Source of the DNA: Actinomycetota bacterium | GTDB lineage: Bacteria > Actinomycetota > Acidimicrobiia > Acidimicrobiales > JAJPHE01 | Assembly: GCA_021325435.1 (NCBI GenBank) | Contig: JAJPHE010000126.1 | Span: 27,791-91,790, forward strand | Reading direction: 5' to 3' | DNA length: 64,000 bases | Part shown: one piece after another, positions 50,270 to 54,175 of the stretch | Layout: each line of letters opens with the position of its first letter | How positions within the stretch are numbered: the first letter of the stretch is position 1 | The notes under the pieces: model-generated | The model's input: the letters and a program-made list of their open reading frames with translations, nothing else | Told to the model about the DNA's origin: nothing | Databases searched by the model: none | Program-made: the position numbers and the translations under genes

Positions 50270-50995
50270 TCAGGCGCGGCCGTCACCGGTCCGGCCGCGC
50301 CTCTCCTCGCGGCGGGCGTAGAGCTCGGCGATCCGGTTCAGGTCGACCGAGATGAACACCCCCTCGGCCTCGGAGATGAGCTCCCCGTCGAGGAGGCAGC
50401 GACCGACAGTGGACGTCTTGCGGCCCTCGATGGCGACGATCTCGCCTTCGAGCCGCAGCTCGCGGTGCAGCGGCGTCGGCCTCCGGTAGCGGATGGTCAG
50501 GGTTCCGGTCATTCCGGGCTGGCCGCCGAGAGACTGGGTCATGCCCAGCAGCTCGTCGAACACGGCGGCCACGTATCCACCGTGGACGCACCCCGGTGGG
50601 CCCTCGTAGGCAGCTCCGAAGGTGACTCTGCCGACGACCATGTCGCCTTCGGGGATCAGGGATGCCGGCGGGGCCAACGGATTGGCTGGCCCCATCATGG
50701 GGCTGTGGTCGAAGAAGGCCCGGGGGGTGCCGGCGTTGGCCGATTCGGCGAATCCGTCGTAGGTCCGGCCCTGCCGGTGTCCCTCGAACGACTTGGCCAG
50801 CTGCTCGGCGGCGTCGGCAGCTCGGCGGATCTCCTCGAGCGGGGCCTCGGTGTTGACCAGCTTGTCGATCAGGTGCCGCAAGGCGTCGCCGAGCCGTCGC
50901 TGCTCCGCCCGGCGAGGAGTGAGCTCGGCCGCCATGGCCTCTCGCATCCGCTCGGCCCACTCCTCGTTGAAGCTCCCCTTGGCCGGCTCAGTCAT
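50270..50995 (-). CDS. PaaI family thioesterase
   Basis: GPANPLAPP, EGPPGCVHGG, FDELLG, YRRPTPL. Confidence 0.9.
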   Translation of the reverse strand: MTEPAKGSFNEEWAERMREAMAAELTPRRAEQRRLGDALRHLIDKLVNTEAPLEEIRRAADAAEQLAKSFEGHRQGRTYDGFAESANAGTPRAFFDHSPMMGPANPLAPPASLIPEGDMVVGRVTFGAAYEGPPGCVHGGYVAAVFDELLGMTQSLGGQPGMTGTLTIRYRRPTPLHRELRLEGEIVAIEGRKTSTVGRCLLDGELISEAEGVFISVDLNRIAELYARREERRGRTGDGRA

Positions 50996-51803
50996 CGGTC
51001 CTGAAGTCGATCACGAGCGGCGCATGGTCGGAGGGCAGCTTGCCCTTGCGAGCGTTGCGGTCGATCAGAGCCCACTGGGCCCGGGCGGCCAGCCCGGGGG
51101 TCGCCAGCACCAGGTCGATACGCATTCCCCGGTGCTGGTGGAAGTCGCCGGCCCGGTAGTCCCACCAGGTGAACAGCCGGTCCTCGCCCCGCACCTCACG
51201 GAACGTGTCGACCAGGCCCCACTCGAGGATGGCCCGCAGAGCCTTGCGCTCTGCGTCGCTGACATGGGTGGCCCCGACGAATGCCGCCGGATCCCACACG
51301 TCGCGGTCCTCGGGGGCGACGTTGAAGTCGCCGCAGACCACCACGTCCCCCTTCGGGTCGCACGATGCCTCGAGGTGAAGCCTCAGCTCCTCGAGCCAGT
51401 CGAGCTTGGCCACGTAGTGCTCGCTGCCCACGCTGCGCCCGTTGGGCACGTACACGGAGCAGACCCGGACTCCAGCGCAGGTGGCGGCGATGAAGCGGCT
51501 CTCCGCCTCTTCCGAGTCGGTGTCGAAGCCGGCCACAACCGCCTCCAAGCCGACGCGGGAGAGAATGGCGACGCCGTTCCACCGACCGGCGCCCCCGTGA
51601 TGGGCGCTGTCGTATCCCAGAGCTGAGAAGGCCATCGCCGGGAAGGCGGCATCGGAGACCTTGGTCTCCTGCATGCACAGGACGTCCGGCCGGGCGTACT
51701 GCAGCCACTCCTCGACCCGGGGCATGCGGGCCCGTAGCGAGTTGACGTTCCAGGTGGCGATGCGGAGGGTTCCGGGCGGCCGCCAACTCTGCTCCACCCA
51801 CAC
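50988..51803 (-). CDS. xth: Exodeoxyribonuclease III / AP endonuclease
   Basis: ATWNVNS, QETK, YVPNG, GDFN, RIDL, SDHAP; start uncertain. Confidence 0.94.
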   Translation of the reverse strand: MWVEQSWRPPGTLRIATWNVNSLRARMPRVEEWLQYARPDVLCMQETKVSDAAFPAMAFSALGYDSAHHGGAGRWNGVAILSRVGLEAVVAGFDTDSEEAESRFIAATCAGVRVCSVYVPNGRSVGSEHYVAKLDWLEELRLHLEASCDPKGDVVVCGDFNVAPEDRDVWDPAAFVGATHVSDAERKALRAILEWGLVDTFREVRGEDRLFTWWDYRAGDFHQHRGMRIDLVLATPGLAARAQWALIDRNARKGKLPSDHAPLVIDFRTDD

Positions 51804-51853
51804 GTTCTAGCCGAGCGGGAGGGGCTGGCGGACCGCCCCGTAGGCTGCCGGTC

Positions 51854-52441
51854 GTGGAGGCCGTGGTCTGGAGCGACTATCTCTGACCCTGGTGTTACGT
51901 CGGCCTGGATCGGTCGGCCCGGTTGGTCGAGCTGGGGGTGGCGGTCGTCCAGCTTCCCTTCGAGCTTCATCCTGAGATACCGCGGGGCGGCGTCGTCCGG
52001 CGCCGAGGCCCGGAGTCGTACGCCCGCATAGCGGACGAGTGCGCCAGGGCGGCCCTGGCCTTCAACCCTCCTCAGAGGGTCCCCAACACCCGCCTCGCCC
52101 TCGAGGCAGCCGAACTGGTGCGCCTCCGGTATCCGGCGGCATTCGAGCAGCTGAATCGCTCGCTCTTCGAGGCCCACTTCGTCGAGGGAGGCGACATCGG
52201 CGATCCGACGGTCGTCTACTCGCTGGTCGAGGAGGCGGGGGCCGATCCGGAGGAGATTCGGAGCCGGCGCCAGATCGGGGAGGGGCGTCGGATGGTCGAT
52301 TCCTCCATGGCAGCCGCCCGCGAGGCGGACGTGACCGGCACCCCGGCTTGGCTCCTCAACGGGTCACTGCTCATCCCAGGAGCTCAACCTCGCGACCTGT
52401 TCGAACGGGTGGTGCGGAGGCTCAGCTCCAGACACGGCTGA
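51854..52441 (+). CDS. FrnE/DsbA-family thiol oxidoreductase, probable selenoprotein (Sec at TGA 51884-51886)
   Basis: MEAVVWSDYL-U-PWCYVG...PFELHPE...PNTRLA...VTGTP...GAQP; in-frame TGA at the first Cys of CPWC; -10 TAGGCT 7 nt before GTG. Confidence 0.85.
51899..51918 (+). promoter_or_regulatory. Putative bacterial SECIS hairpin
   Basis: GUCGGCC-UGGAUC-GGUCGGC, 7-bp stem with GG in the loop, starting 12 nt after UGA. Confidence 0.65.
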
Positions 52442-52444
52442 AGG

Positions 52445-54175
52445 TCAGCCCGCCGTCTTGCGGGCGGACGTCTTCTTGGCCGGTGCCTTCTTGGCTGGTG
52501 TCTTCTTGGCTGCGGCGGTCGTCTTCGACGATTCGGCCTTCTTTGCGCCCGTCTTGGCGGCTGTGTCGGGCGCCTTCTTGGTCGTCTTCTTGGCCGTCGA
52601 CGCCCTCTTCGTCGTCGCCGTCTTCTTCGCCGTGGCGGTCTTCTTCGTCGTCGCCGTCTTCTTCGCCGTGACCGCCTTCTTCGTCGGGGCCGTCGTCTTC
52701 TTCGCCGCCACCGGCTTCTTGGACGCGGTCTTCGTCGCCGCCGCCTTCTTCGTAGTGGTGGCCTCTTTCGCCGCTGTCTTCGTCGTAGCGGCCTTCTTCG
52801 TCGTAGCGGCCTTCTTCGTCGCGGCGGCCTTCTTCGTCGCGGCGGCCTTCTTCGTCGCGGCGGCCTTCTTCGTCGTGGCTGTCTTCTTCGGCGCCGCCGC
52901 CTTCTTCGCCACCGCCTTGGTGGTGGCGGCCTTCTTCGTAGTAGCGGCGTCCTCTACGACTGCCGACGTCTTGCTCGCCCGGCGGGCGACCTTCTTGGTG
53001 GCCCCCGCCTTGCCCGCTCCCCTGGCGGGGACAGCCGCCTCGGCGGCTGCCGCCTTCCGGGTCGACTCACGCCTGCTTGTCTCATCCCTTCCGTCGCCGG
53101 GGGTGGAATCGGCTGTGATGCCGCCGGCCTCGGGACCAAGGCCATCGGTCGCCACCGCCCCGCGACGGCGACGACGTCCTCCCCGGCGGCGCGACCGGCG
53201 GCGGCTGGCCGACTCGGTCGATGCGATCTCGGCCTCGACCGTCTCCTCCTGGGGTGAACCCGACACGTGGACGTGTCCAGGCAGGGCCAGTTCGATCCCC
53301 CGCCGCTGAGGATCCAGCGCCTGGAGCACGAAGCGGCGGGTCTCGCCTTTGCGCAGGACCTCTCGGGCGCTGCGGGGCGGGGGGTCGCCCATCGCCGACA
53401 GCGGGATGTAGCAGCGGGCGTCCTCGACGACGACGAAGGCGCCGTGGGAGGAGAAGCTGTCGACCTCCCCCTCCAACTCATCGCCCAGCGGGTGGGCGGC
53501 GACGAAGGTGATGAAAGTAAGGGGTTCGTTCACCGCCTCCGGAGGAGGACCCGCCCTCTTGCGGCGGGGGGAAGAAGAGGAGGTGACTTCCTCGGTGGCG
53601 GTGGCGATCGCCTCCTGAACGGTTCCCCTCTGTTCTCGGCTGCGCCCTCGAGGGGGCGGCGCCTTCGGAACCGGCATGGGCTGAGAGGCGTCCTTCGACC
53701 CGATCCTCACGTTCTGGCGACGGGCCTCGCGAACCGCCTCACGACTCTTGGGGCCTCTCACCGGGTTGCGGGGCGTGAAGATCCAACCAATCCCAGGGAC
53801 GGGCTTGCCCCCGATGAGCCGGCCCTTGTCGAAAAGCCAGTCGTACTCACCGTGGAACTCCTGGAAGGAGTCGTTCGAGAGCACGGTCGCCCCGGACTTG
53901 TCGGCGATACGCAACAGGAAGGCATCGCCCCGTCCGATGGCCCCAGCGGGAGGTGACACCAGTTCGCCGTGGGACTGGGCCTCCTGGAACGCCTCTCGTT
54001 CCTTCTCCTCGATCCGGTGGCCGAAGGTGGCGTCGACCACGACCGTTATCTCCACGTCCGGGTGCTCCCGCTGGAACTCGCGGACGGCGTCGTCGAGCTG
54101 GGCCAGGCTGGGAACCGACCGCCCCTCAGTGGCGATGTTGGAGCCGTCGACGACGACGTGGGTGAAGGGCGGCAT
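52445..54175 (-). CDS. NYN (Zc3h12a/Regnase-like) RNase + S1 domain + Arg-rich tract + histone-H1-like tail
   Basis: VVVDGSNIA, VVVDA, GDAFLL, LSNDSF; S1 (GEVDSFSSHGAFV...YIPLS); RRRSRRRGGRRRRR; K/A/T repeats. Confidence 0.82.
   Translation of the reverse strand: MPPFTHVVVDGSNIATEGRSVPSLAQLDDAVREFQREHPDVEITVVVDATFGHRIEEKEREAFQEAQSHGELVSPPAGAIGRGDAFLLRIADKSGATVLSNDSFQEFHGEYDWLFDKGRLIGGKPVPGIGWIFTPRNPVRGPKSREAVREARRQNVRIGSKDASQPMPVPKAPPPRGRSREQRGTVQEAIATATEEVTSSSSPRRKRAGPPPEAVNEPLTFITFVAAHPLGDELEGEVDSFSSHGAFVVVEDARCYIPLSAMGDPPPRSAREVLRKGETRRFVLQALDPQRRGIELALPGHVHVSGSPQEETVEAEIASTESASRRRSRRRGGRRRRRGAVATDGLGPEAGGITADSTPGDGRDETSRRESTRKAAAAEAAVPARGAGKAGATKKVARRASKTSAVVEDAATTKKAATTKAVAKKAAAPKKTATTKKAAATKKAAATKKAAATKKAATTKKAATTKTAAKEATTTKKAAATKTASKKPVAAKKTTAPTKKAVTAKKTATTKKTATAKKTATTKRASTAKKTTKKAPDTAAKTGAKKAESSKTTAAAKKTPAKKAPAKKTSARKTAG
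52785..52874. repeat. Five tandem 18-bp units encoding TKKAAA/TKKAAT
   Basis: GTAGCGGCCTTCTTCGTC x2 then GCGGCGGCCTTCTTCGTC x3, within a larger degenerate array (about 52450-52990). Confidence 0.9.

Follow-up and report, generated by a model that had tools for sequence, protein, structure and literature searches.

Selenoproteins of the DsbA-like family carry selenocysteine (Sec, U) in a UxxC redox motif and have been known since 2005, when nine sequences (COG2761), with stem-loops resembling selenocysteine insertion sequences (SECIS) downstream, were described from Sargasso Sea metagenomes (PMC1088965). Four DsbA-like members appear in a 2006 survey (PMC1794560), a table in a 2016 survey gives 41 and 45 for the family (PMC5029168), and reviews from 2022 and 2026 list it as PF01323 with a UxxC motif (PMC9312934, PMC13188914). 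The hosts named in that literature are Deltaproteobacteria, Clostridia, Asgard archaea and the sources of marine metagenomes, with archaeal members in Asgard only (PMC13188914). Here we analyse a 64,000-nucleotide (nt) stretch of DNA (the window) from a metagenome-assembled genome (MAG) of a soil bacterium of the order Acidimicrobiales, and within it a DsbA/FrnE-like gene whose frame contains one TGA, which probably encodes Sec. The gene resembles the DsbA-like family (form 1) in its Pfam domain, in having the predicted Sec first in UxxC, in its widespread cysteine (Cys) homologues and in a stem-loop with a small, G-containing apical loop directly downstream of the UGA. This likeness to the family, whose published representative is NIP15863.1, is drawn by domain, motif and stem-loop. 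In Escherichia coli fdhF, the UGA is likewise followed by a hairpin within the coding sequence (CDS), with G and U residues in its apical loop, and is recoded by a dedicated SelB with C-terminal winged-helix domains; the window hairpin differs in being short (7 bp, 20 nt) and unrelated in sequence.

The probability that the gene at 51854–52441 is a genuine Sec-encoding DsbA/FrnE-like gene is, in our estimate from sequence comparison, about 0.88. An earlier note on this DNA had claimed a GTG start at 51854, a TGA at 51884–51886, the hexamer TAGGCT 7 nt before the GTG and a 7-bp hairpin with a GG loop 12 nt after the UGA, and all of these elements are present in the sequence (Table 1). On the + strand they run in the order TAGGCT, 7-nt spacer, GTG, nine sense codons, TGA, open frame and stop TGA. 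Translation with TGA read as U gives 195 amino acids (aa) starting VEAVVWSDYLUPWCYVGLDRSARL; the frame stays open for 184 codons after the TGA, and its GC content by codon position (0.75/0.50/0.83) fits coding. The antisense open reading frame (ORF) that overlaps the gene (51383–52177; 0.65/0.73/0.71) does not look coding. The expectation that annotation pipelines would mis-call the gene also held, as the translation-table-11 ORF list begins it only at the TTG, with a product of 172 aa.

Table 1. Positions of the gene, its signals and its predicted active-site codons within the window
Feature	Position	Strand	Basis
-10-like hexamer TAGGCT (TANNNT type)	51841..51846	+	Sequence; 7 nt ahead of the start codon
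CDS of predicted DsbA/FrnE-like selenoprotein, 195 codons plus stop TGA (52439–52441)	51854..52441	+	TGA=U translation, Pfam DSBA, FrnE/SCO1869 matches, codon-position GC
GTG start, 10 codons ahead of the predicted Sec codon	51854..51856	+	Same-position start in homologues; conserved N-terminal VEAVVWSDYL
In-frame TGA, predicted Sec codon U11 (codon 11), first position of U-P-W-C	51884..51886	+	Aligned with the first Cys of CPWC
TGT, predicted resolving Cys, C14 of UPWC	51893..51895	+	Sequence; C in 21/23 Sec forms
SECIS-like hairpin: 5' arm 51899–51905, loop UGGAUC 51906–51911, 3' arm 51912–51918	51899..51918	+	Fold and homologue comparison
TTG where the standard-code ORF call begins (172-aa product, active site lost)	51923..51925	+	Table-11 ORF list
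CCG, Pro164 in GTPAW, candidate cis-proline of the thioredoxin fold	52343..52345	+	Aligned with the FrnE 5cnw TGVPFF segment

The product matches the Pfam DSBA domain (PF01323) over nearly the whole profile (E = 1.8e-24, 87 bits against a cut-off of 25.6; residues 5–185 on profile positions 4–188 of 191). The closest solved chains are Deinococcus FrnE (5cnw; E = 1e-9, residues 4–181) and SCO1869 (3gl5; E = 3e-8). The alignment places U11 on the first Cys of the FrnE 5cnw CPWC motif and T163-P164 on FrnE GVP; Pro164 is a candidate for the cis-Pro role that is general in DsbA and thioredoxin folds. The UPWC motif occupies residues 11–14, and the 10 residues ahead of it leave no room for a signal peptide. 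The sequence thus reads as that of a small thiol-disulfide oxidoreductase, predicted to be cytoplasmic, from the FrnE subfamily of DsbA proteins. In Deinococcus radiodurans, FrnE (DR_0659) is described, by prediction or experiment, as a disulfide reductase/isomerase that works in the cytoplasm and has a CP(W/F)C site (PMC8945050). It and the window protein share the DsbA-fold subfamily and an N-terminal CP(W/F)C-type motif that aligns residue for residue. They differ in that the Deinococcus protein has Cys, is 260 aa long and ends in a CxxxxC tail for which a role in regenerating the active site has been proposed, whereas the window protein has a predicted Sec, is 195 aa long and has no such tail: it ends at residue 195, and its sole other Cys lies in ADECAR. 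The tail is found in many FrnE proteins but not in all, and is absent from those of S. roseofulvus and D. maricopensis, so its absence here does not disqualify the protein from the subfamily (PMC8945050). In the catalytic cycle that we propose, which would also involve a physiological reductant, the U11 selenolate of U11-P-W-C14 would attack substrate disulfides and Cys14 would resolve the resulting selenenylsulfide.

Homologues were compared at the codon that corresponds to the in-frame TGA. Among the MAG (G000) and 60 relatives, 29 of 61 genomes matched the window protein at E up to 1e-10, with 30 loci at family or order level, and TGA aligned with the C11 position in seven of these (in G000, G030, G043, G029, G039, G028 and G027). 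The best 80 of 253 relatives in named genomes comprised 16 with TGA, 53 with TGC or TGT and 11 that a regular expression left unassigned, nine of these without the motif and two (L064 and L086) with off-target matches only. Once identical sequences were removed, the alternation between Cys and TGA at this codon was borne out by 23 Sec forms and 71 Cys forms (TGC/TGT), and sequence conservation flanks the TGA codon on both sides. Hosts of the Sec forms are Acidimicrobiales, Anaerolineae, Dehalococcoidia and other Chloroflexota, and Dormiibacterota.

Two loci that are too short (L021 and L112) and four exact duplicates were left out of a maximum-likelihood tree, built by a quick search, which has 93 rows and many unresolved forks. 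On it the Sec/Cys label requires seven changes, at least four of them forced by well-supported branches. We read this tree without a claim on the ancestral state or on one Sec ancestor for the window gene (L014) and its Sec orthologues L016 and L050. The window gene lies in an Acidimicrobiales clade of 48 rows, 45 of them Cys and three Sec. An orthologue is absent from the five remaining genomes of its GTDB family, in which the search met just a Cys-type FrnE paralogue, 28–34% identical. Elsewhere on the tree, a Cys-type clade from Asgard archaea (Promethearchaeota and Thorarchaeota; L105, L113, L118, L119 and L122) is nested among Chloroflexota Sec-type rows.

The hairpin that follows the UGA pairs GUCGGCC with GGUCGGC in seven pairs (two of them G-U; −10.8 kcal/mol). 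Taken alone it is unremarkable, and it gains weight only when homologues are compared, among which conservation and compensatory changes support it. A strict hairpin (perfect stem of at least six pairs, 11–13 nt after the codon, loop of 3–7 nt) is present in 15 of 23 Sec forms versus 8 of 71 Cys forms (Fisher P = 1.1e-6, uncorrected for phylogeny); at other offsets the Sec forms gave 0 hairpins at 5–10 nt, 9 at 14–16, 1 at 17–19 and 1 at 20–22. The stems differ by clade while the offset stays the same: GUCGGCC/GGUCGGC, GUCGGCAC/GUGUCGAC, CUCGGCCU/GGGCCGAG and UCGACUC/GAGUCGA. In eight Sec sequences picked by hand for a common 5-nt loop, 92.2% of cells are paired, a figure that stays at or below 45.3% once the partner is slid, and changes on both sides are seen in 4 of 8 pairs. 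With 21 of the 23 Sec forms placed on a covariance model, 86.8% are paired versus at most 50% when slid, and the 15 double-change cells of that alignment were reached by 0 of 500 shuffles. The model search gave 14 off-target matches at E up to 1; a threshold of 1e-5 was used, at which L102 and L104 dropped out.

Conservation is also visible at the nucleotide level. The 20 nt of the hairpin are identical in the window gene and the Sec orthologues L016 and L050, the proteins being only 56–58% identical. The 21 nt that encode VGLDRSA are the same in L014 and L016, and L050 departs from them at the final nucleotide; a Cys form that encodes this peptide has four synonymous differences. For the loop Asp, GAT is the codon used by 7 of 7 Sec forms versus 6 of 31 Cys forms (P = 1.4e-4). 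In the minimum-free-energy fold of 51884–51950, the 5' arm pairs with a more distal GGUCGA; this alternative is conserved in neither L016 nor L050 and was discarded.

The machinery that Sec insertion would need, named by the earlier note as selA, selB, selD and tRNA-Sec, was found in its entirety in the same MAG, a 160-contig assembly of 4.0 Mb that is 96% complete and in which the window is contig C148. SelA scores 351.7 bits; the SelB wing domain scores 61.5 bits within an elongation-factor-like frame of 533–549 aa that ends in a winged-helix domain; and SelD scores 341.2 bits and has its own in-frame TGA, reading GAGUACK (L011, contig C65). Two tRNA-Sec genes exceed the Rfam cut-off, both with anticodon UCA and both with a discriminator G followed by CCA. 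UGA is the ordinary main stop codon, without global reassignment, because it ends 616 of 868 long frames with high GC at third codon positions; it ends the DsbA gene too. tRNA-Sec occurs in 26 of 41 Acidimicrobiales genomes searched (G000 counted), and in all five relatives of the searched set that have a Sec-type DsbA gene (G027–G030 and G039). A search of the MAG with the window protein at E up to 1e-10 returned the Sec-type gene only.

Several results weigh against Sec insertion guided by this hairpin. Shuffled versions of the 67-nt stretch 51884–51950 fold as well as the stretch itself (z = 0.08), the strict hairpin test is failed by 8 of the 23 Sec forms, and when the criterion is relaxed 32 of the 71 Cys forms fold at the hairpin position too. 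GC-rich coding sequence folds readily. In the 21-sequence alignment, the three double-change pairs were reached by 228 of 500 shuffles and are not distinctive; the alignment is, moreover, fitted to its model, and the window gene, L050 and L103 are placed oddly in it. The nearest Cys orthologue (L015) keeps the stem GUCGGCC/GGUCGGC, with a loop, UCUCCC, that has no G. All of these statistics treat related sequences as independent. The hairpin tests overstate significance because they ignore kinship, yet their direction is consistent. The Sec genes lie on contigs C60, C65 and C66 and the window on C148, such that their co-residence rests on binning. Finally, insertion of Sec and of Cys is bioinformatically indistinguishable in genomes that have tRNA-ReC, where a SECIS-dependent UGA may be read as Cys (PMC13582414).

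This last point leads to the first of the alternatives to Sec insertion, in which UGA is recoded by the SECIS/SelB route but Cys is delivered by a tRNA of the tRNA-ReC type (SelC*; Vargas-Rodriguez et al. 2018, cited in PMC13582414), perhaps the divergent tRNA encoded on contig C125. The genome resembles that system in its SECIS-dependent UGA codons and in having a second tRNA-Sec-like gene, about 79% like the first, where the 25 matching relatives have one each. However, the criterion for tRNA-ReC is a discriminator U with anticodon UCA or GCA (PMC13582414), and the discriminator of both tRNAs here is G. SelA and a Sec-containing SelD are present, and C125 may itself be foreign, given its GC content, its low-GC island and an ORF that we take to be an IS21-type transposase; Cys insertion is very unlikely. 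The fact that 45 of 48 rows of the Acidimicrobiales clade have Cys, and that the same-family genomes offer only the distant Cys-type paralogue, would also fit a TGA that arose by recent nonsense mutation or assembly error and left the gene dead or truncated in this strain. The same codon is nevertheless TGA in 22 other homologues with intact frames, and this recurrence therefore excludes a one-off nonsense mutation; the 184 codons that remain open after the TGA have coding-type third-position GC, and the hairpin is unchanged between orthologues whose proteins are only 56–58% identical. An assembly error is further opposed by a Logan contig (4,284 nt, depth 31.5), which was built independently, shows no differing letter over 51500–52800 and has the TGA unchanged, its sole exception being an 18-nt insertion in a repeat at 52776, outside the DsbA gene. 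A second assembly thus carries the TGA, although the Logan contig comes from the one public DNA run in which the stretch was found, which is probably that of the source sample and so not independent data; no public RNA run contained the stretch. We regard a dead or mis-assembled gene as highly improbable.

The remaining alternative is that translation starts at TTG 51923 or later, as the standard-code ORF call has it, with a product that has no redox motif and an upstream frame that is fortuitous. Yet the block that the family conserves best, WSDYL[C/U]PWCYVG, is encoded in the 23 codons ahead of this TTG, a product that began at the TTG would lose the CXXC-bearing part of the DSBA match, and the -10-like hexamer is positioned for the GTG. 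A downstream start is hardly credible.

If Sec is inserted, the steps would be as follows. At the UGA of codon 11, the hairpin, which sits in the codons of the conserved YVGLDRSA peptide and would present its G-containing apical loop, would recruit SelB carrying Sec-tRNA(Sec), and Sec would be inserted in place of termination.

The start of the gene is supported by homologues, 68 of which (non-identical) have ATG, GTG or TTG 10 codons before the Cys/Sec codon. The earlier note's pairing of a -10 box with the GTG gains from the same comparison: 41 of 68 homologues have a TANNNT hexamer 6–9 nt ahead of the corresponding start (exactly 7 nt in 29), and only four such hexamers stand at other spacings within 40 nt. 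Shine–Dalgarno-like motifs occur in 3 of 68. A scan with the sigma-70 consensus found no promoter, and the case for a leaderless mRNA rests on the TANNNT positions. Given what is generally known of actinobacterial promoters, their placement suggests that the mRNA would begin at or next to GTG 51854. We consider it an even bet that the mRNA is leaderless from this GTG, with the UGA at nt 31–33 and the hairpin at about nt 46–65, and that Sec and Cys have been switched repeatedly in soil Acidimicrobiales while this architecture was kept. If so, a ribosome initiated as a 70S particle would have to encounter SelB at a structured element very near the 5' end, and the gene would lend itself naturally to tests of how SelB recodes leaderless mRNAs. 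We found no treatment of bacterial leaderless selenoprotein mRNAs in the literature, as judged from titles and the beginnings of abstracts.

With respect to novelty, UxxC DsbA-like selenoproteins were already known, as the earlier note also states, and the gene is a further member of that family, not a new kind of selenoprotein. The note's statement that Sec use beyond formate dehydrogenase is poorly documented in Actinobacteria needs correcting: the 2006 survey counts 12 selenoprotein families and 19 proteins there, Symbiobacterium included, and names Actinobacteria as one of the three phyla in which such families abound (PMC1794560). According to a 2026 preprint, Sec machinery is universal in Actinomarinales, a different order within this class (10.64898/2026.04.03.716425). 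The term 'DsbA' is absent from the available text of that preprint, and we found no explicit report of DsbA-like selenoproteins from Acidimicrobiales in the parts of the literature covered, of which supplementary lists may hold actinobacterial ones. How selenoproteins are understood to work is unchanged by the finding. Its practical consequence is that standard-code gene callers cut the active site from this enzyme, and the same truncation is expected for the 22 Sec-type homologues and the other selenoprotein candidates of the genome. The distribution of tRNA-Sec in Acidimicrobiales, together with at least six candidate selenoprotein genes in this MAG, points to wider Sec use in aerobic soil Actinomycetota. 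Because Sec and Cys have been exchanged inside a single clade of orthologues, one Cys member of which has kept the stem, this clade could serve as a small model of how SECIS elements arise and disappear within coding sequences.

At least four of these candidates come from further known families: a formate-dehydrogenase (FdhA)-like molybdopterin enzyme with an in-frame TGA, QARIUHSST (L143, G000:C74:6805-10047); an AhpC/Redoxin-TPR protein with an in-frame TGA, WASWUGC (L144, C101:2746-3822, minus strand); a class-I glutamine-amidotransferase (GATase)-like protein with GTUGG, of the GxUxG type (L145, C100:4222-4914, minus strand); and a UGSC-family protein with an in-frame TGA (L146, C17:4569-5111). 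FdhA-like, AhpC/Redoxin, UGSC, GATase and SelD proteins all belong to families listed as selenoproteins (PMC13188914). The four came from a genome scan for a TGA followed by a hairpin, which gave 37 candidates; these four of the 37, chosen by eye from ten, were checked against Pfam, and the scan is not a census. Its filters missed the DsbA gene and SelD, both of which have short upstream parts, and the hairpins of the four were the selection criterion and so lend no independent support. At least one other scan candidate is two adjacent genes in one frame; the peptide after its TGA is, we presume, the start of ribosomal protein S4.

The near Cys orthologue noted above (L015:1531-1590 in G024, identical to L044) has TGT at the Sec position and is 58% identical to the window protein, as is the Sec form L050. 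Its stem is possibly a SECIS relic after a recent switch from Sec to Cys, or a pre-adaptation. Two Acidimicrobiales homologues (L102:3031-3081 and L104:3031-3081) read L-U-P-W-A, with Ala for the resolving Cys, and some Cys forms (L020, L021 and L060) are CPWA; the downstream hairpin of L102 and L104 is shifted or weaker and falls below the covariance-model threshold. The MAG also has two weaker DSBA-domain matches that contain no stops (L136, G000:C71:695-1147, 34.9 bits; L137, G000:C72:80-529, 32.9 bits).

As for the two tRNA-Sec(UCA) copies (L001:1501-1596 at G000:C125:2208-2303 and L002:1501-1592 at G000:C66:13136-13227), that on C66 is 86–92% identical to the tRNA-Sec genes of relatives, and that on C125 has no match to them by blastn-short. 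Contig C125 is 10.97 kb long, with a GC content of 67.3% against 71.1% and a stretch of 59–61% GC at 4–8 kb. Its tRNA-Sec may be a selC borne by a mobile element, or the contig may be mis-binned.

The gene looks monocistronic, and its neighbours are no obvious partners. Upstream and divergent lies an Exo_endo_phos nuclease (50988–51803, minus strand); downstream and convergent lies an NYN-RNase/S1 protein of 576 aa with a repetitive tail rich in Lys, Ala and Thr (52445–54175, minus strand). Three terminator-like hairpins on the + strand (52453–52498) lie inside the coding tail of the latter gene, and the 18-nt insertion of the Logan contig falls in the repeat of the same tail.

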